64,000 bases of DNA from Thermodesulfobium acidiphilum (lineage in GTDB: Bacteria; Thermodesulfobiota; Thermodesulfobiia; Thermodesulfobiales; Thermodesulfobiaceae). The notes beneath the pieces were generated by a model that had not been told where the DNA came from, made no database searches, and worked only from the letters and a program-made list of their open reading frames with translations. The stretch covers positions 546,916 through 610,915 of the forward strand of contig NZ_CP020921.1 in assembly GCF_003057965.1 (NCBI RefSeq), given 5' to 3'. Both the position numbers and the translations under genes were made by a program. Below, one piece after another: positions 19,205-31,660 of the stretch (within the stretch, counting starts at the first letter, position 1; every line of letters begins with the position of its first letter).

Positions 19205-19604
19205 TTGGGGAGTAACTCATCTGGGGTTAAGTATAAGCGATCCTGAGGAAAGGATTGTATTTCCTATAGGCACTATTGTTAGAACTACCTGGGATAAAGA
19301 TTTGAATATGATTAAACAAATTGTTGAGGAAAAAAATATAAAGACAATAGTTCTTGGTGATCCTTTAAGAACAGATTTTCCTTTTACGTCATCTAAATCA
19401 ATTCTTAAAGTGAAGAAGAAGTTAGAAACTATAGGGGTCAGAGTGATACTCTTTGATGAGAGATATTCTACTAAAGAAGCGCTAAAACTTCAAAAGATTT
19501 TAGGAAATAGGAATAAAGATAAAGTTCATGAAATTGCAAGCTCGATTATATTAAAATCATTTTTAGATTTTATATCTAAAGATAAGAAAAACATAGGTGA
19601 ATGA
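19185..19604 (+). CDS. ruvX: RuvX/YqgF pre-16S rRNA nuclease
   Basis: YLGIDWG..LGLSISDP and DERYST motifs. Confidence 0.85.
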   Translation: MRYLGIDWGVTHLGLSISDPEERIVFPIGTIVRTTWDKDLNMIKQIVEEKNIKTIVLGDPLRTDFPFTSSKSILKVKKKLETIGVRVILFDERYSTKEALKLQKILGNRNKDKVHEIASSIILKSFLDFISKDKKNIGE

Positions 19605-19812
19605 TAAAAGTAATTTTATGATTCTTACAAAATCTATTTCTTTCATCTCTGATAGGTGTAATAAGTGCGGAAAGTGTTCTTTAATTTGTCCTAAAGGGGT
19701 AATTTATTTAAATGGTTTTTTCAGGCCGATATTTGTTAATTTATCAAGGTGTAATGCTTGTAAAAGGTGCGAAAGAATATGTAAAAGTAATGCGATTGAG
19801 GTTTTATTATAG
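19597..19812 (+). CDS. 2x[4Fe-4S] ferredoxin-like protein
   Basis: CNKCGKCSLICP and CNACKRCERIC motifs. Confidence 0.8.
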   Translation: MNDKSNFMILTKSISFISDRCNKCGKCSLICPKGVIYLNGFFRPIFVNLSRCNACKRCERICKSNAIEVLL

Positions 19813-21191
19813 TGAATAAAAGTTTTAAAAAAGTTTTAATATCTGCTCCATTTGGTCGTTCTGGTAAAACATCCTTTTCAATAGGTCTAGCTCGTGCGCT
19901 TTCAAGAAAGGGATATAAGGTTCAAACATTTAAAAAAGGACCTGATTTTATAGATCCCAGCTGGCTTTCTATGTCTTCAGGAAGATTCTGTAGGAATCTA
20001 GATTTGTTTATGATGGATAAAGAAACAGTTTTAAGATCTTTTATAACAAGTTCTATTGACGCAGATATTGCCATAGTTGAAGGTGCAATGGGGCTTTATG
20101 ATGGGATTGACTATTTAGGTACCGGCTCAACTGCTGAAATTGCAAAAATAATAGATAGTCCTATTATATTTGTTTTGCCTGTTCAAAGAATAACAAGGAG
20201 CAGCGCTGCACTTATAAAAGGGTATGTTGAGTTTGATAAAGAAATAGATATTAGAGGCATAATATTGAATAAAGTGGCAAGAGATAGACAAAAAAATTTA
20301 ATTATTAACGCACTGAAGCACTACAATTTGCCGGAGGTTTTAGCCTCTTTTCCAAAAGATGATAAAAGATTATCTATTCCAGATAGACATTTAGGTTTGA
20401 TACCTGCCAAAGAAAGATCGGAATTAAATTCTGTGATTGATAGTTTTGCTGATGCTGTAAATGAACATATGAATTGGGACCTGTTTTTTAATATAACCAA
20501 GAGTTATGAAGTAAGCAGCGAAGTATTAGGCGATCTTGTTAACTTTGAAAGGTTATTTGATGTTAGGATAGGTATAATTCAGGACATATCGTTTTCCTTT
20601 TATTATCCTGAAGTATTTGACTTTTTGAAAAAGTTAGGTGCGAAAATAGAAATTATAAACTCTTTAGCAGATAAGCACCTTCCAGATATAGATGTGCTTT
20701 ATATTGGAGGTGGCTTTCCTGAAGTTTTTGCTAAAGAGCTTGAAAAAAATGATTCGCTAAGAAGATCTATTAAAGAATTTGGTGAGAACAATTATCCAAT
20801 TTATGCTGAATGTGGTGGGTTAATGTATTTATCTGACTTTATTGAAAACGACGGTAATAAATATAATATGGTAGGACTTTTGCCATTTGGCATCCATATG
20901 GATAAAAAACCTGTTGGACATGGTTATGAAGAAGTTGAGGTATTTGAAGAAAACCCATTTTTCAGAAAGGGGATAAGAATAAAAGGACATGAATTTCATC
21001 ACAGTAGTGTCTCGATCAGTAGAAGTACTGATATTAAATTTTCTATGAAAGTTCTTAGGGGAAATGGCATAATGAATAAACTCGATGGCGTGGTATATAA
21101 AAGGGTTATGGCATCATATCTTCATATCCATCCATTGGGGTTTAAGGATTTTGTAGCTAATCTGCTAAGATCTATATACGTTTGTAAATAA
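19812..21191 (+). CDS. CbiA/CobB-family glutamine-dependent tetrapyrrole amidase (possibly DsrN siroheme amidase)
   Basis: GRSGKT P-loop, FKKGPDFIDPSWL, VEGAMGLYDG, RHLGL, YAECGGLMYL and GHEFH motifs. Confidence 0.85.
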   Translation: MNKSFKKVLISAPFGRSGKTSFSIGLARALSRKGYKVQTFKKGPDFIDPSWLSMSSGRFCRNLDLFMMDKETVLRSFITSSIDADIAIVEGAMGLYDGIDYLGTGSTAEIAKIIDSPIIFVLPVQRITRSSAALIKGYVEFDKEIDIRGIILNKVARDRQKNLIINALKHYNLPEVLASFPKDDKRLSIPDRHLGLIPAKERSELNSVIDSFADAVNEHMNWDLFFNITKSYEVSSEVLGDLVNFERLFDVRIGIIQDISFSFYYPEVFDFLKKLGAKIEIINSLADKHLPDIDVLYIGGGFPEVFAKELEKNDSLRRSIKEFGENNYPIYAECGGLMYLSDFIENDGNKYNMVGLLPFGIHMDKKPVGHGYEEVEVFEENPFFRKGIRIKGHEFHHSSVSISRSTDIKFSMKVLRGNGIMNKLDGVVYKRVMASYLHIHPLGFKDFVANLLRSIYVCK

Positions 21192-21602: not shown

Positions 21603-22076
21603 TTATGGTTTTCTTTTACATTTAGGGCACATAGTCAAATGTTTTGGGACTGGTTTTCCCTCACCAAACAATTTGTGTGCTATTAACGTCATATCCGGTA
21701 TAAATGCGCCACATTTTGCGCACTTTATAAGTTTTATTTGATGATCGACCTTAAAATCATCGAGATTGGTAGCAACAAAGTATGGGTTTGGTCTATGTTT
21801 TATTGCATTGGTAGGGCAATAATCTATACACTGTCCACAACAGGTGCACTGATCTAGGTCCATGTGATAATTCATTTTGTCATCTATTTGTGATATTTTT
21901 ATAACCTTTGCCGGGCAAAAGTACTGACATATACCGCATGCAATACACCTGCTGGGGTCGTGTTCTGGATAGCCATGAAAACCTCCTGGATGCTCTGGTA
22001 AGTTAGCAGCCGATATTTCTTCTGTTATAGGCGGTTTAAAAATATTCTCAATTAAGATTCTTATCAGTGGAAGCAT
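21603..22076 (-). CDS. Group 4 hydrogenase 2x[4Fe-4S] subunit (NuoI/EchF/CooX/HycF-like)
   Basis: GFHG.PEHD..RCIACGICQYFCP and CTCCGQCIDYCP, plus a C-terminal CAKC...CPKC. Confidence 0.88.
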   Translation of the reverse strand: MLPLIRILIENIFKPPITEEISAANLPEHPGGFHGYPEHDPSRCIACGICQYFCPAKVIKISQIDDKMNYHMDLDQCTCCGQCIDYCPTNAIKHRPNPYFVATNLDDFKVDHQIKLIKCAKCGAFIPDMTLIAHKLFGEGKPVPKHLTMCPKCKRKP

Positions 22077-23462: not shown

Positions 23463-24752
23463 TCAGTGTACCACCTTAATCAAGTTATTGATGACGTTTA
23501 TTAAATAGTTTGGGTATATACCAAAAAATAAAATTGCTATACATAAAATTGTTAGCGAGACATTCGTAGCAAATTTTTCTACAAAACTCATCTTATTTCT
23601 TGCCATGCTTTCTTCACTTCCCCAAAAAATTTTATGATAGGCACGGATGTAGTAAATAAGAGTTAAGCAGCTTGCAATAATTAGAAAGATACTAAGTAAC
23701 AAGCTTTTATCAAAAGCTGCCTGATAAAGTAATAATTTGCCAGAAAAACCAGGTAAAAAAGGCGCACCTATAAGGCTAAGTGAAAAAATCAAAAATGTTA
23801 TTGATAAAAAGGGATATTTTTTTGCAATGCCGCTTAAATCTGACATATTTGTGGTGTAAAAAATGTTTTCAATTTTGTCAGTTATAACGAATAGTCCAAA
23901 TTTTGAAACGGAATGATTTATTAATATTATTACGGCTGCGATTAATCCTAAACTATTTCCAATTGCAAGCGCTAAAAGAAAGTAGCCCGTATCATCAATT
24001 GTCGAATAAGAGAGAAGTCTTTTTAGATCTTTTTCAAGGTATGCCATTATTGCTCCGACAATAATTGATAATATTGCCATGAAGAACAGCATATTGTTTA
24101 GATCTTGATATGTTATAAATGATATCGACTTAACTTCTTGCAATATGAAGAACAGTAGGTAAAAGTCTATTACTTCTCCGACACATACAACTGCTGATGA
24201 TATTATAGGATTTGTGATGCTAACGAATTTTGGTTGCCACCAGTGAAATGGTGTGGCAGCTAACCTTAAAGATATTGCAATTAGAGCTAGAAAACCAATA
24301 AATGGAATAAAACTAGTGGTATTTAAAATAAAAAGTAAATAATATATTACGTTAACAATAAAATATATCTTATAAGAGTTGAAAGATTTGATTGTCATAA
24401 ATAAAAAGCCAAATGCTATTAAACTTAAGAGTTCCAACACAATACTATAAAGCAATGCATCGTGATTTAAGAGTGCAAATAACTGAAAAATGAAAGCTAT
24501 GATATATAAAGGTGAGACTGATTTCTCGAAATCCTTAACTGACAATATGATAGAAATCAAAGTAGAGACGATAAATATAGTTATTATAAAAAATGATTTT
24601 AAGTCAAAGGGTGAAAAAATTTCAAAGTTAATTAGATCATATCCTAATGAAGAAAATGTAATCAAAACTAATATGAATCTTATAATTTTATTTTTTGTAT
24701 TAGAGAGTAATATTAGACATATTGCTAAAAATAAATCAGATATTAATAACAA
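23463..24752 (-). CDS. Proton-translocating antiporter-like subunit (NuoN/MrpD family)
   Basis: PFHWWQP, DLKRLLSYSTI, NHSVSKFGLF and GAPFLPGFSGK motifs. Confidence 0.85.
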   Translation of the reverse strand: MLLISDLFLAICLILLSNTKNKIIRFILVLITFSSLGYDLINFEIFSPFDLKSFFIITIFIVSTLISIILSVKDFEKSVSPLYIIAFIFQLFALLNHDALLYSIVLELLSLIAFGFLFMTIKSFNSYKIYFIVNVIYYLLFILNTTSFIPFIGFLALIAISLRLAATPFHWWQPKFVSITNPIISSAVVCVGEVIDFYLLFFILQEVKSISFITYQDLNNMLFFMAILSIIVGAIMAYLEKDLKRLLSYSTIDDTGYFLLALAIGNSLGLIAAVIILINHSVSKFGLFVITDKIENIFYTTNMSDLSGIAKKYPFLSITFLIFSLSLIGAPFLPGFSGKLLLYQAAFDKSLLLSIFLIIASCLTLIYYIRAYHKIFWGSEESMARNKMSFVEKFATNVSLTILCIAILFFGIYPNYLINVINNLIKVVH

Positions 24753-24768
24753 ATTAACATCTCCTTGC

Positions 24769-26658
24769 CTACCATTTAATTAATTGAGCAAAAGCTATTA
24801 CTATTATCATTGAAACCATACTCATTACCAGCCACATCTCGTTTTCAAGCCACCTTATAGGTATATATATAATTTCAAATGCAGTTTTTAACAAATCATT
24901 TGAAAAGTCATACCACTTGTCAGAATCTGTAAATCTATAAAAGTTTTTTGAAAGACTTTCAACATCGAATATGTAATCAAATGCATTGATACTTTTTAAT
25001 GAGCTAATTTTTACTTCTCCACCGGTAAAGCTTTGAACTCTCTTGAAGCTTTTGTTTGAGACGAAAATTATTATGATAGGTATAAAAATAGCTATTATTG
25101 CGAATATAGCTGTAAAACTTGCAAGGTAGCCTCCTCCAGAGGATAACAAGACCCCCAGGTTAAAGTTGAATATTTCCTGGTTTAAATTTAAGTTAAGGCT
25201 ATGAAGAGCTGGAACAAGAAGATAGGAAATCAAAAATTGTGGCAATATTCCAATTAGTATGCAAAAAATTGCGAGCAGGGAAATTGAGAATATTTCAATT
25301 TTATATTTGCCTTCTTGTATATTTTTAAATTCTTCTTTTTGGAATCCAAAAAAGGCTGTTGAAGATGCCTTTATGAAAGAAAGCAGGGTAAGAGTGCTTG
25401 CAATAAGACCAATAGCCGCAGCAAATGGATAATTTGCCTGAATTGCTGCATAATAAAAGATCCATTTACTTATAAATCCATTAAAACCCGGCACGCCTGA
25501 TATTGAAAACGATCCTATAAGAAAGAGGGCAGCTGTAAATGGAAGTTTTTTAAAAAGCCCACCCATTTTTGTAAGGTCTTTGCTGCCTGTAGCGTTTTGT
25601 ATTATTCCAGAGCATAAAAATAGAGTGCATTTAAATAGCCCATGATTAAGTGCGTGAAAAAGTGCGCTTGCAATCCCAAGGGGGGTTCCAAGTCCGATTC
25701 CTGCTACCATATATCCAATTTGAGATACGGTGTGAAAGGCAAGAAGTTTTTTTATCTCTGTCTGTTTTAGTGCATACATTACGCCAATTAGTGATGTTAA
25801 CGAGCCTACAGTAACTATCAGTGCGTTCCATGGGAAGGGATAGGGGTATAATATCAAATACGTCTTTACAAGAATATATACGCCAGCCTTAACAAGGCAT
25901 GCAGCATGTAAAAGTGCGCTGACAGGAGTTACAGTGTTCATGGCGAAGGGTATCCACGTGTGAAGCGGCCATTGAACAGACTTTGCCATACATGCAATTA
26001 ATATTCCCATAAGAATTAGATTGATATATATGCCAAAATTACTTCCTTCAAGTTTTGAGATAATAAGGTTTCCGTTTGTACAATATGCAATAGCAATAAT
26101 GCCAAGTAACAGCCCGTATCCAGCAATGTGTGTCATAAGATATGCCTTTTTTGCAGAGTAGCTTGAAAGATCTCTTTCATACCAAAAGCCAATTAATTGA
26201 TAAGAACAAAGTCCAATAAGTTCAAAGAAAACATATGTCCAAATTAAATTATCACTCAATACTACTCCAAGATATCCTCCAATAAAGAGCTGCATAAATC
26301 CAAAAAATCTGCCCATTCCATTTTTTTCATGGGACATATATTCAAAAGAATAAATGCAAACGCAAAAACTAATAAAGGATCCAAAAAGTGCAAAAAATAA
26401 GTTGATACCATCAGCTCTTAGTATTAAATTTAAATTAATGATGTTGAAAAGGTTTTGACTGAAGGGACTGGTTGAAAAAGGATAGTTAATAAAATTTATA
26501 CAAAGGTAAATTATAGCTAAAAAGGAGATTAAAGAAGTAATTATCGAAATAGATCCATGAAACTTGCACGAATTTATTTTATAAAATAAGAAAGAGATTA
26601 TACTTCCAGAAAAAAGAATTCCTATGCTTAGAAAAATTATAAAATTTTTGTCTATCAA
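24769..26658 (-). CDS. Proton-translocating antiporter-like subunit (NuoL/MrpA/EchA/HyfB family)
   Basis: AKSVQWPLHTWIP, TPVSALLHAA, IKKLLAFHTVSQIG and NHGLFK motifs. Confidence 0.9.
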   Translation of the reverse strand: MIDKNFIIFLSIGILFSGSIISFLFYKINSCKFHGSISIITSLISFLAIIYLCINFINYPFSTSPFSQNLFNIINLNLILRADGINLFFALFGSFISFCVCIYSFEYMSHEKNGMGRFFGFMQLFIGGYLGVVLSDNLIWTYVFFELIGLCSYQLIGFWYERDLSSYSAKKAYLMTHIAGYGLLLGIIAIAYCTNGNLIISKLEGSNFGIYINLILMGILIACMAKSVQWPLHTWIPFAMNTVTPVSALLHAACLVKAGVYILVKTYLILYPYPFPWNALIVTVGSLTSLIGVMYALKQTEIKKLLAFHTVSQIGYMVAGIGLGTPLGIASALFHALNHGLFKCTLFLCSGIIQNATGSKDLTKMGGLFKKLPFTAALFLIGSFSISGVPGFNGFISKWIFYYAAIQANYPFAAAIGLIASTLTLLSFIKASSTAFFGFQKEEFKNIQEGKYKIEIFSISLLAIFCILIGILPQFLISYLLVPALHSLNLNLNQEIFNFNLGVLLSSGGGYLASFTAIFAIIAIFIPIIIIFVSNKSFKRVQSFTGGEVKISSLKSINAFDYIFDVESLSKNFYRFTDSDKWYDFSNDLLKTAFEIIYIPIRWLENEMWLVMSMVSMIIVIAFAQLIKW

Positions 26659-26676: not shown

Positions 26677-27096
26677 TTATTCTGCAGAAATTGCTGCTAT
26701 TTGTACGATTGCCCCTGTTGGACAGGCCTGAGCACACACAGCAACAAAGTTGTTTTTTTCACAGAGATTACATTTTTGAGCTATTATTTTTACATAATGT
26801 GTGCTTTGTCTTGATATCATTTCAATTGCCCCAAATGGGCACATATAGTAGCAAGTTTTACAGCCAACGCATGCATCAGGATTTATATCAATTACTCCCT
26901 TTTTTCTATCTATAGCTTTTACAGGGCAAACCTTTTCACATATTCCACACATTGTGCAATATGTGATTTTGTAGCTTTCTGTAGATTCATTCTTCGATAT
27001 AAAAATCCTTGGTTCAGGTGAATTATTTATTTTCCTGCATGCATCCATGCATTTGAGGCACCCAATACATTTTTTTTGGTCTATTCTAAGTCTCAC
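26677..27096 (-). CDS. Polyferredoxin electron-transfer subunit (HycB/HyfA/CooF/DmsB-like)
   Basis: CIGCLKCMDAC, CTMCGICEKVCP, CVGCKTCYYMCP and CNLC...CAQACP. Confidence 0.88.
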   Translation of the reverse strand: MRLRIDQKKCIGCLKCMDACRKINNSPEPRIFISKNESTESYKITYCTMCGICEKVCPVKAIDRKKGVIDINPDACVGCKTCYYMCPFGAIEMISRQSTHYVKIIAQKCNLCEKNNFVAVCAQACPTGAIVQIAAISAE

Positions 27097-27105
27097 ATTT
27101 TCCTC

Positions 27106-28203
27106 CTATCTTTGAGTGCATGAGAGACATGGATCTACGCTGGCAACTATTAATGTAGCATTTGCCAAATCGTTATTGGGCAGCATTGCTGAGAGGGCTG
27201 GAAGATTGACAAAGCTTGGGGCTCTAATCTTGTGCCTGAATGGGACATCTGAACCATCAGAGATAAGAACGTGAACGTCTTCGCCTCTTGGTGCCTCATG
27301 CCTACCTACTGCTGTACCTTCTGGAATTATTGGTCTAATTTCTTTAGCAATCGGGCCATCTGGCATAATTTTTAGAAGTTTTTTGATAATGTTTATGCTT
27401 TCCAGAATTTCTAAGAGCCTTACTTCTACTCTTGCAAAGACATCACAGCCATCAGAGACGATTACTTGCCAGTCAATCATGTCGTAGGCAGCTCCTGGCT
27501 CGTCAATTTTTCTAATATCTTGTGATATTCCCGAAGCCCTTGCGACAGGTCCTACGACTGAATATGTAATTGCATCTTCTTTTGTGAGGATTCCAACCCC
27601 CTTAGTTCTGAGTTCAATCGTTTTATCATTCATAACTACATCAATAAATGATTTACAGTTATCTTCTATTTCGTTTAATGTCTTATAAATTGATTCTAAA
27701 TCTGTAATATCCCTTCTTACTCCACCAATTGTATTAAATGAATAGTTTGCTCTATGCCCGGTGGTTAATTCCATTAGGTCTTTAACCTTTTCTCTCGAAT
27801 TCCATATTAAATAAAATACGCTTATAAAACCAATTACATGTGCTGCTATTCCTGCCCAAAGAAGGTGTGAGTGAATTCTTTCAAGCTCACTAACTACTGT
27901 TCTTAAGCATTTAGCCCTTGGTGGTACGTTAACATTTCCAAGTTTTTCTACTGCCTGGACCCAGGCCATTGGATGGGACATACTTCATATTCCACAAACT
28001 CTTTCTACAAGTGGGATTACTTGCCAGAAATTTTTGGTTGCAGACAGATATTCGATACTGCGATGTACGTAACCTAAATCTATTGTAGCGCTCTTTATTT
28101 TGGAACCTTCTGCTTCAAGAGTGTATGTGGCTGGTTCTTCGAGGGCTATGTGAATGGGCCCAATCGGTAGAGAAAAACCTCTCTTTATTTCATTTTCAGA
28201 CAA
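27106..28203 (-). CDS. Group 4 [NiFe]-hydrogenase large subunit, predicted selenoprotein (365 aa, in-frame UGA at codon 73)
   Basis: ORFs 27985-28203 and 27106-27981 are in the same frame, separated by TGA-AGT. The joined protein has GPIHIALEEP, GYVHRSIE, ERVCGI(U)SMSHP, ELERIHSHLLW, EAPRGE and ends DPCLSCTQR. Confidence 0.88.
27950..27969 (-). promoter_or_regulatory. Candidate bacterial SECIS stem-loop
   Basis: Minus-strand AUG-GCCUG-GGUC-CAGGC-AGU: a 5-bp GC-rich stem with a G-first GGUC loop starting 23 nt 3' of the UGA. Confidence 0.7.
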
Positions 28204-29037: not shown

Positions 29038-30291
29038 TTATTGTAATTCTATTCCTTTTGTTTCTGGTAAAAAGAATATTAGAATTGCGCCGAGGAAAAA
29101 GAAAAGTGAGGTAATAGTGAGAGATACGCCAAGACCATAACTAATGGCAAAAAACCCAACAACTGTAGGTGCAAAAGCGCTTAGCGCTCTTCCAGTATTA
29201 TATGTAAAACCTACTCCCGCCCCCCTTGCTTTTGTTGGGAAGAGTTCTGAGATGAATGCTCCAAATCCACTAAAATACCCTGAACCAAAAAATCCTAGAA
29301 AGGGCCCAATTAACATTAATGTGTTTGCATCTCTTGTATGTCCATAAATATATACCAAAATTGCTGATATTATAAGATAAAAAGAAAATGTTGGTCTTCT
29401 CCCCAATCTGTCAGCTATAAAGCCAAAACTAATGTAACCTAAAAAGGCACCGATCATGGTGGGCATCATAAAGCTTGAACTCTTTACTATACTAAGTCCA
29501 GCTCCACCTTTTTCTACTGGAGAGCTTAAAAATCCAGGCAACCAGACAAATAAACCCCAATAGGCAAACATAACTGCTGAGCTAATTAAAGTGGTAATTA
29601 TTGTAAATTTAAGCAGGTATGGTTTAAAGATTTCAATGAATGATGAAATAAAAGTTCTGTTTTTATCAGTCTTTTCAATCCATATTCTTGGTTCATCTAC
29701 GAATTTTCTTACATAAAATATAAATAAAGCCGGGAGTATGCCTATAAAAAAGAGCATCCTCCACCCATATGCTGGAATAACGAAAGAGGATGCTAAAGCA
29801 GCTAAAAAATATCCTATTGCCCAACCGCTTTGCATAATGCCAATCGCTTTTCCTCTGTGTTCTGCTGGCCAGGATTCGCTTACAAGCAAGGCACCCGTAG
29901 CCCATTCACCGCCCATTCCAAGTCCAAGTAAAGTCCTTGCTATAGCAAGCTGCCAGATATTCTGAGATAAACCGCTTAAAGCCGAACAAATTGAAAAAAT
30001 TAATACAGTTGACATCAAAGCTTTTTTTCTGCCAATCTTGTCAGCGATAATGCCCCATATTATACCACCAGCAGCTGAAGATAGTAGGGTAAGAGATGCT
30101 AAAAGTCCTAGTATTGCTGTGTTTATTGACCACTCCTTCATGATACTTGTGAGGGCGAAGGCATAAAGCATAACATCAAACGCATCTAGTCCCCATCCCA
30201 TAAAACCTGCAAAAAGAGAATACCACTGGCTTTTGTTGACCTCTAAGTACCATGGAACGCTTTTTTCTGACACAGTTTGCACCCCTTCCAC
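29038..30291 (-). CDS. Major facilitator superfamily transporter (organic/aromatic acid:H+ symporter-like)
   Basis: GWGLDAFD, IADKIGRKK, GLGMGGEW, ESWPAEHRG and ELFPTKARG motifs; about 12 TM. Confidence 0.9.
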   Translation of the reverse strand: MEGVQTVSEKSVPWYLEVNKSQWYSLFAGFMGWGLDAFDVMLYAFALTSIMKEWSINTAILGLLASLTLLSSAAGGIIWGIIADKIGRKKALMSTVLIFSICSALSGLSQNIWQLAIARTLLGLGMGGEWATGALLVSESWPAEHRGKAIGIMQSGWAIGYFLAALASSFVIPAYGWRMLFFIGILPALFIFYVRKFVDEPRIWIEKTDKNRTFISSFIEIFKPYLLKFTIITTLISSAVMFAYWGLFVWLPGFLSSPVEKGGAGLSIVKSSSFMMPTMIGAFLGYISFGFIADRLGRRPTFSFYLIISAILVYIYGHTRDANTLMLIGPFLGFFGSGYFSGFGAFISELFPTKARGAGVGFTYNTGRALSAFAPTVVGFFAISYGLGVSLTITSLFFFLGAILIFFLPETKGIELQ

Positions 30292-30535: not shown

Positions 30536-31660
30536 TTGTTTTTATATTTTATAATATTAACTTGTTTTATTAGCTGGTATTTTGTGTATCTATTTTTTAA
30601 ATTAAGAAAAAAGCATCCGGTGGATCCTAACTTTAACCCAAAAGTGCTCTTAATTACACCCTTTAAAGGATTGGAGCAAAACACCAGAGCAAATGCTTTA
30701 TCAATTTTAAATCAAGATTACAATAATATTCAGATTTACTTTGTTGTTGATTCAAAGAAGGATGAAGCATATCAAATCTTAAAAGATCTGGAGAAGGACT
30801 ATGGTAATAAATTAAGCGTTATAATCTCTGGTATTTCAAAAAGTTGTAGCCAAAAGGTATATAACATTGTAAGGGCAATTCAGAAATGTAAGGAATACGA
30901 CATACTTGTAGTTCTTGATTCTGATGGCAGTCCCTCTTCTGACTTCATTTCAAAACTAATTTCTCCACTTCGATCTGAGAGAATTTCAATTACAACCGGT
31001 TATCCAAAATATTTCCCGCCTAATAAGACATTTTTTGGTTTTGGTAGGGCTATACTTGTAAGTCTTGGAATAGTGCACGCTCTCAATCCATTTAATAGAG
31101 GTATCTGGGGTGGAGCTTTTGCTATAAAAAGAGAAGATTTCGAGAAAATTGGGGGAGTTAAAATTTGGGAAAGAAGTGTTTGTGAAGATAGAGATCTTAC
31201 CTGTGCAATTAGTAAGGCCAATCTAAACGTTTCATTTGTTCCTGAAGCCTTTTTGCATTCACCTGAAGATGCCACTTTATCTTCGTTTTTAGAATACTGG
31301 AGAAGACGGTATCTTATATTAAAACTTTGGGATAAACCGCTTTGGATTTCTTCAGGAGTTATTTATTTTGCTTTTTTGGTTCCATATATTGTTTTGCTTT
31401 TGGATCTTGTAGACCCACTGTATGAAGCTAATCTGGTTTGGACAATTGCTTCAATTCTAATTATCATTATTGGCTCGATACTTATTTTAAAGTTTGACTT
31501 CAAAGAAGAAAATCAGCTCGTTTTGAGAGCTTTCTTCTTGCCTATTTATTTTTTTGTTATGCTTTTGGCTTTTTGCCAGGGAATCTTTCAGAACGAACTT
31601 CAGTGGAGAGGGGTTACATATAAGTTTAATAAAGCGGGAAAATTAATTGTTTTGAGATAA
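30536..31660 (+). CDS. Membrane GT-A glycosyltransferase (GT2/GT21, ceramide-glucosyltransferase/HpnI-like)
   Basis: N-terminal TM, ITPFKG, QDY, QKVYN, LDSD, WGG, CEDRDL, C-terminal TMs and WRGVTY. Confidence 0.75.
   Translation: MFLYFIILTCFISWYFVYLFFKLRKKHPVDPNFNPKVLLITPFKGLEQNTRANALSILNQDYNNIQIYFVVDSKKDEAYQILKDLEKDYGNKLSVIISGISKSCSQKVYNIVRAIQKCKEYDILVVLDSDGSPSSDFISKLISPLRSERISITTGYPKYFPPNKTFFGFGRAILVSLGIVHALNPFNRGIWGGAFAIKREDFEKIGGVKIWERSVCEDRDLTCAISKANLNVSFVPEAFLHSPEDATLSSFLEYWRRRYLILKLWDKPLWISSGVIYFAFLVPYIVLLLDLVDPLYEANLVWTIASILIIIIGSILILKFDFKEENQLVLRAFFLPIYFFVMLLAFCQGIFQNELQWRGVTYKFNKAGKLIVLR

Follow-up and report, generated by a model that had tools for sequence, protein, structure and literature searches.

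The Ech2-type hydrogenase of Thermodesulfobium acidiphilum is predicted to carry selenocysteine (Sec) in place of the second, Ni-Fe bridging cysteine in the N-terminal motif of its large subunit, Ech2E. In the window analyzed here (the whole 64,000-nt stretch of contig NZ_CP020921.1), the large-subunit gene ech2E contains one in-frame TGA codon at precisely this ligand position, and we estimate a probability of roughly 90% that Sec is inserted at this codon and that the product works in an Ech2-like ion-pumping complex with a bridging U73, the two taken as a whole. A bridging-Sec variant of group 4g hydrogenases is already known in silico for Thermodesulfobium from the report of Takano et al. 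(Front Microbiol, 3 Sept 2026; PMC13582414), to which the present analysis adds dN/dS, synonymous-site and tRNA-discriminator checks.

An in-frame TGA codon at a metal ligand of the large subunit

The minus strand of the ech2E region (28203-27106) reads GAA AGA GTT TGT GGA ATA TGA AGT ATG TCC CAT CCA around the N-terminal motif, and the translated frame has a single internal stop, the TGA at codon 73 within ERVCGI*SMSHP. The product terminates in DPCLSCTQR* with no C-terminal extension, and its Cys/Sec ligand positions are C70 and U73 in the N-terminal motif and C359 and C362 in the C-terminal motif. The read-through product exceeded the cut-offs for both PF00346 and PF00374. The start codon is TTG, with AGGAGG located 7 nt to its 5' side, and an internal in-frame ATG at 27981 has no AGGAGG-like motif upstream. 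An earlier note, made from the sequence alone, had placed the TGA on the second Cys of an RxCxxC motif at codon 73, with both halves of the gene in frame and a plain DPCLSC motif at the C-terminus; translation and alignment bore out each of these statements. It had also foreseen that standard gene calling would misannotate the gene, and indeed the table 11 call comprises only the 291-aa downstream piece, while in the 90% protein cluster all of the members (12/12) are downstream fragments of 287-291 aa. The features of the locus are listed in Table 1.

Table 1. Features of the ech2 locus, in window coordinates
Feature	Position	Strand	Remarks
ech2D, NuoC-like, PF00329	28196..28663	minus	overlaps ech2E start by 8 nt
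ech2E, group 4 [NiFe(Se)] hydrogenase large subunit	27106..28203	minus	365 aa; N-motif RVCGIU, C-motif DPCLSC
In-frame TGA, codon 73, predicted selenocysteine	27985..27987	minus	Ni-Fe bridging ligand site, second Cys in the N-motif
Predicted SECIS apical hairpin GCCUG-GGUC-CAGGC	27953..27966	minus	loop 27961-27958 begins 23 nt past UGA
HycB/CooF-like multi-[4Fe-4S] ferredoxin subunit	26677..27096	minus	
ech2A1, NuoL/MrpA-like antiporter subunit	24769..26658	minus	629 aa
ech2A2, NuoM/N, MrpD-like antiporter subunit	23463..24752	minus	429 aa
ech2C, hydrogenase small subunit, NuoB-like, PF01058	23039..23461	minus	
ech2B, NuoH-like membrane subunit, PF00146	22101..23042	minus	
ech2F, NuoI/HycF-like 2x[4Fe-4S] subunit	21603..22076	minus	

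Conservation and selection across the TGA codon

The TGA at codon 73 was found in all six close loci (7/7 counting the window's own), which share 85-93% DNA identity with the window's ech2E. Among the 41 genomes searched, three of the same genus carry ech2E at 92-94% amino-acid identity with one TGA each, and the same TGA is also present in locus L001 and in two metagenome loci (90%). Since L001 and L007 do not differ in DNA and L035 and L036 share 99.1% identity, these loci amount to four independent sequences besides the window's own. The pattern-based locus searches found close relatives only (one locus in genome contigs and three in metagenomes), and the protein homolog search covered predicted proteins, in which Sec forms appear split. 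The column aligned with codon 73 was Cys in 20/20 aligned homologs (20 chosen among the 120 matches listed), in PDB chains 6CFW_L and 7Z0S_E, and in the seven more distant loci that keep the NiFe motif (L009-L015).

When the near-duplicate pairs L001/L007 and L035/L036 were set aside, dN/dS ranged from 0.014 to 0.165 upstream of the TGA and from 0.042 to 0.098 downstream of it, and dS among the close ech2E loci reached 0.87, indicating that the halves on either side of the TGA are both under purifying selection. That databases hold just the downstream fragment would fit a pseudogene, a nonsense allele or a sequencing error. We consider this extremely improbable, because purifying selection acts on both halves across an old stop codon, and because the same TGA recurs in independent assemblies (three of three same-genus genomes, L001 and the two metagenome loci), which argues against chance or sequencing error. 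The eight subunit genes of the operon are moreover all intact, and apart from Ech2E no group-4-type large subunit retaining the Ni ligands was found in the genome.

Translation could also stop at the UGA and restart at ATG 27981, in which case two peptides would result, forming a module of complex-I-like or Ehr-like kind that has no NiFe site. This ATG stands in frame two codons past the TGA in 7/7 loci, at a position where most Cys relatives differ, and the genome encodes another group-4-like subunit without CxxC. A split subunit is nevertheless highly improbable, given that C70, E22/E23, H77, R306, C359 and C362 are all retained in the alignment, that the internal ATG lacks a Shine-Dalgarno motif, and that every one of these stops is TGA, with no TAA or TAG among them, and lies precisely on the Cys column. 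E22/E23 would be the proton-relay Glu pair and R306 the canopy Arg, roles taken from PMC9474812 and PMC8020662 and from general background on such enzymes.

Predicted SECIS hairpin

The read-through of ech2E is predicted to be guided by a hairpin located shortly after the TGA, in which the loop guanines are the third base of the Trp81 codon and the first base of the Val82 codon. Its GGUC loop at +23 was unchanged in 7/7 loci, and the longest invariant run of ech2E, which is 42 nt long (27972-27931), spans the hairpin in all seven. In this run, 12/12 synonymous-capable codons were invariant, compared with 153/302 overall (five non-duplicate sequences). Shuffling codons within each amino acid gave a permutation p of 0.038 for the longest invariant run anywhere in the gene, a figure obtained from five related sequences; the p of 4e-4 for codons 78-91 belongs to a segment picked after inspection, and 0.038 is the fair figure.

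The folding energy of the hairpin was no better than that of shuffled sequences (z from -0.64 to +0.59), and in locus L008 the minimum-energy fold departs from the predicted hairpin. Of 312 ordinary TGA stops, 31 also triggered the ad hoc hairpin rule, and all that the three SECIS candidates of the genome have in common is a G close to the start of the loop. The SECIS assignment in ech2E thus draws its support from where the hairpin lies and from its conservation; folding energy adds none.

Selenocysteine machinery and decoding of the UGA

In the single-contig genome (1.77 Mb, with 99.99% completeness), matches above cut-off were found for selA, selB and selD, and a tRNA-Sec gene (selC) with a UCA anticodon and a G discriminator (G73) lies directly before selB. 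The genes selA and selB and the tRNA-Sec were present in 4/4 genomes of the genus, in each of which the single tRNA-Sec ends in GCCA with G, not U, as the discriminator; a G discriminator is the criterion for SelC in PMC13582414.

Were the UGA instead read as Cys, through SelC*/tRNA-ReC recoding or leaky decoding, the enzyme would be an ordinary [NiFe] Ech2. The tRNA-ReC can place Cys at a SECIS-dependent UGA (PMC13582414), Cys is the ancestral residue at the codon-73 column, and a relaxed ARAGORN search gave three further weak candidates with a UCA anticodon. These three candidates are, however, absent from the RF01852 matches, and the one that was viewed is malformed. The only tRNA above the Rfam tRNA-Sec cut-off is the one with the G discriminator, in all four genomes. 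No tRNA-ReC was found among the remaining RF01852 matches in the genome, which sit on ordinary tRNAs, and there is one CysRS motif match only. We regard a Cys reading as very unlikely; judged from the sequence evidence, the UGA at codon 73 very probably encodes Sec.

An alternative genetic code was considered as well and rejected, as TGA terminates 312 long ORFs and the tRNA-Trp reads CCA.

Genome-wide TGA scans, which covered 18,406 TGA codons with an upstream start and used ad hoc filters that short or motif-less selenoproteins could escape, yielded three credible selenoprotein genes only: ech2E, selD itself with a catalytic-site TGA (CAG-U-AAK), and fdnG, encoding formate dehydrogenase-N alpha, also with a catalytic-site TGA (ARI-U-HSS). 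The fdnG gene is located on the minus strand at G000:C1 1089377-1092379 (L044:3378-6380) and matched TIGR01553 above the cut-off. A few kb from it (C1:1084825-1086444) there is a second molybdopterin-family frame, 998 aa long and free of stops.

Operon organization and enzyme class

The operon has the order D-E-HycB-A1-A2-C-B-F, and the order of D, E, HycB and A1 is kept in relatives as far as their loci extend. A promoter and terminator scan remained at chance level (27 found, 36.7 expected). The read-through Ech2E had its best PDB sequence matches in 6CFW_L (E 2e-79) and 7Z0S_E (2e-75). An AlphaFold model of Ech2E, with Cys in place of Sec and no metals, had a pLDDT of 86 with low confidence for residues 361-365, and its top fold match was 7Z0S_E (TM 0.89).

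In a midpoint-rooted tree of 70 rows (P0003-P0060 of the 120 listed matches plus loci, with P0061-P0121 and duplicate loci omitted), the five Sec sequences formed one clade (100/100) nested among Cys enzymes. Its sister group consisted of six Cys-type Ech2E sequences (P0003-P0008, including those of Thermoanaerobacter kivui and Thermodesulfobacterium; support 100/99). By sequence, the PF00346 and PF00374 matches, the Ni-ligand motifs at both ends, the best PDB matches, the co-encoded small, NuoH-like, antiporter-like and Fe-S subunits and the hyp genes place Ech2E among the group 4 energy-converting, complex-I-like hydrogenases, and the tree and gene order identify the Ech2 type; the subgroup label 4g is borrowed from PMC13582414. 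The simplest reading of the tree is that Sec was gained from Cys once, in the ancestor of the genus clade. Named members in four of the five clusters looked up were Thermodesulfobium, and the assignment is kept at genus level.

The earlier note had proposed that Sec replaces the bridging Cys in a group 4 hydrogenase that is energy-converting and resembles complex I. It had suggested checking this by the recurrence of UGA opposite Cys in relatives, the Sec genes of the genome and the phylogeny of the enzyme, counting against it a lack of Sec machinery, or close relatives with a Cys codon here and no conserved hairpin. The proposal is well supported on all of these points: the TGA recurs in 6/6 close loci where 20/20 homologs have Cys, the GGUC-loop hairpin is invariant in 7/7 loci, selA, selB, selC and selD are present, and the enzyme groups with Ech2E.

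Several other genes of the genome and the window were recorded alongside the operon. Elsewhere in the genome there are two all-Cys hydrogenase large subunits and NuoD. A 506-aa group-4-like large subunit without CxxC is encoded on the minus strand at G000:C1 957413-958933, and was also found in same-genus genomes with a lower score; it presumably resembles the Ehr-type complex. An anaerobic CO dehydrogenase catalytic subunit is encoded on the plus strand at G000:C1 31553-33451 (L043:4569-6452) and matched TIGR01702 above the cut-off. In the window, a cobyrinate a,c-diamide synthase gene preceded by a small ferredoxin-like ORF (19597-21191, plus strand) converges on the end of the ech2 operon; the synthase matched TIGR00379 above the cut-off and the CfbB model below it. 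Upstream of ech2D there is an MFS transporter gene (29038-30291, minus strand; aromatic acid/H+ symport-like, below cut-off), which occupies the same place in the four related loci that reach that far, and a family 2/21 glycosyltransferase gene lies at 30536-31660 on the plus strand, with a weak HpnI match of 99 bits compared with a cut-off of 310.

Proposed mechanism and its implications

In the mechanism that we propose, SelB and tRNA-Sec, guided by the GGUC-loop hairpin 23 nt past the UGA, would insert Sec73. In the full-length Ech2E, C70 and C359 would be terminal ligands on Ni, while U73 and C362 would bridge Ni and Fe, and the terminal Cys that exchanges protons would stay sulfur. We infer this ligand geometry by homology: C576 is terminal and C579 bridging in the enzyme of PMC8020662, and the Sec of N-terminal CXXU motifs is predicted as bridging in PMC13582414. 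The Hyp proteins, whose genes hypA, hypB, hypC, hypD, hypE and hypF are all in the genome, would load the cofactor, and an endopeptidase step would probably be unneeded because Ech2E ends three residues past its last Cys.

The eight-subunit complex would act as a reversible ferredoxin:H+ oxidoreductase, as does the Ech2 of T. kivui. Electrons would pass through the iron-sulfur clusters of the HycB-like, F and C subunits to the NiFeSe site, and the A1, A2 and B subunits would couple this transfer to the translocation of ions. Reducing power of ferredoxin (e.g. from CO or pyruvate) would thereby be released as H2 while the membrane is charged, and in the reverse direction H2 would reduce ferredoxin. 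The codon, its conservation, the selection on both halves, the Sec machinery, the gene order and the tree are direct observations, and selenium incorporation, the coupling ion, the physiological direction and any benefit of selenium are inferred from them. The CO dehydrogenase, encoded far from the ech2 operon, is a candidate source of the reduced ferredoxin.

On a further and rather unlikely reading, in which the bridging selenolate is an adaptation, ferredoxin-linked energy conservation (e.g. from CO) would depend on selenium. In the genome, no ion-pumping hydrogenase with Ni ligands other than Ech2 was found, ech2E is one of only three selenoprotein genes identified, a CO dehydrogenase is encoded, and RnfD was looked for and not found. 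On this reading Ech2 would also become the first natural bridging-Sec hydrogenase to be characterized. The predicted bridging-selenolate chemistry is testable in cultured Thermodesulfobium strains.

Comparison with known systems

The closest known system is the clade described in PMC13582414, where 47 group 4 [NiFeSe] sequences are reported (27 of type CXXU, 4 of type UXXC and 16 of type UXXU), 44 of them from metagenome bins. According to the same article, a group 4g CXXU subclade with the Ech2 gene organization occurs in Thermodesulfobiota, three of the group 4g Sec-type sequences are from cultured Thermodesulfobium species, the SECIS guanines are located at position 3 of the Trp UGG codon and position 1 of the Val GUC codon, and the Trp is replaced by Phe in Cys relatives; exceptions described earlier, with an N-terminal CXXU in groups 1 and 3, are also cited there (Baltazar 2011). 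Our locus has the same genus, CXXU motif, Ech2 organization and SECIS loop guanines, has Trp where Cys relatives have Phe (AWVQA compared with CFVQA), and likewise has Thermodesulfobacterium Cys-type relatives; no difference was found from the clade as described there.

The earlier note had further supposed that this active-site chemistry was not characterized. This stands for the natural enzyme, which appears uncharacterized: neither an experimental study of a natural bridging-Sec hydrogenase nor proteomics of Thermodesulfobium hydrogenases was found in the literature searched, which covered few subscription papers. It does not stand for the idea as such, which was preceded by the in silico report and by the engineered C79U variant of Escherichia coli Hyd-1 (Evans et al. 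2021, PMC8020662).

The group 1/3 [NiFeSe] hydrogenases (HysA of Desulfovibrio and Desulfomicrobium, Vhu/Fru of Methanococcus) likewise have one Ni-ligating Cys replaced by UGA-encoded Sec, but their Sec is a terminal ligand in a C-terminal UxxC motif, where the present enzyme has CLSC, and the Ech2E enzyme would be membrane-bound and complex-I-like by its gene content. Ech2E scored 37 and 47 bits against NF045518 and NF033181, far below their cut-offs of 780 and 600, and its sequence does not qualify as the canonical group 1/3 [NiFeSe] type.

In the Hyd-1 C79U variant, Sec takes the place of the corresponding residue, the N-terminal motif's second Cys, but this variant is artificial and was made in a group 1d uptake enzyme. 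As described in PMC8020662, it retained 13% of the native H2 oxidation rate with a lower KM for H2, was nearly inactive at 10% O2 with no gain in O2 tolerance, and showed no H2 evolution. A benefit of selenium is therefore not evident, since the engineered enzyme was less active and less O2-tolerant than the native one. It is doubtful that the bridging selenolate is an adaptation conferring distinct catalysis, for instance stronger H2 evolution under stress from H2, CO or acid. In the natural [NiFeSe] enzymes that have been characterized the Se is terminal, and nothing was gained in the engineered bridging variant; this lineage nonetheless keeps the UGA under purifying selection.

Among enzymes of known structure, subunit L of the Pyrococcus furiosus MBH (6CFW) and HycE of the E. 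coli FHL (7Z0S) are the best sequence matches, but both have all-Cys active sites and other subunit sets. The Ech2 of T. kivui (PMC4320612) is closer, with an identical eight-gene order (ech2D-E-hycB2-A1-A2-C-B-F). Its Ech2E was the best full-length match among those listed (58% identity over 99%) and has the same xQR end without extension. The differences are that the T. kivui protein has Cys at position 73 (CGICSHSHPICF) and that T. kivui has a second Ech, whereas the present genome yielded no further group 4 subunit with Ni ligands. T. kivui lacking Ech2 is impaired in growth with pyruvate and CO as substrates, and not with sugars or H2/CO2 (PMC10986591). T. kivui Ech2 offers a 58%-identical, genetically tractable Cys counterpart, so that among natural bridging selenolates ech2E would be the case easiest to test.
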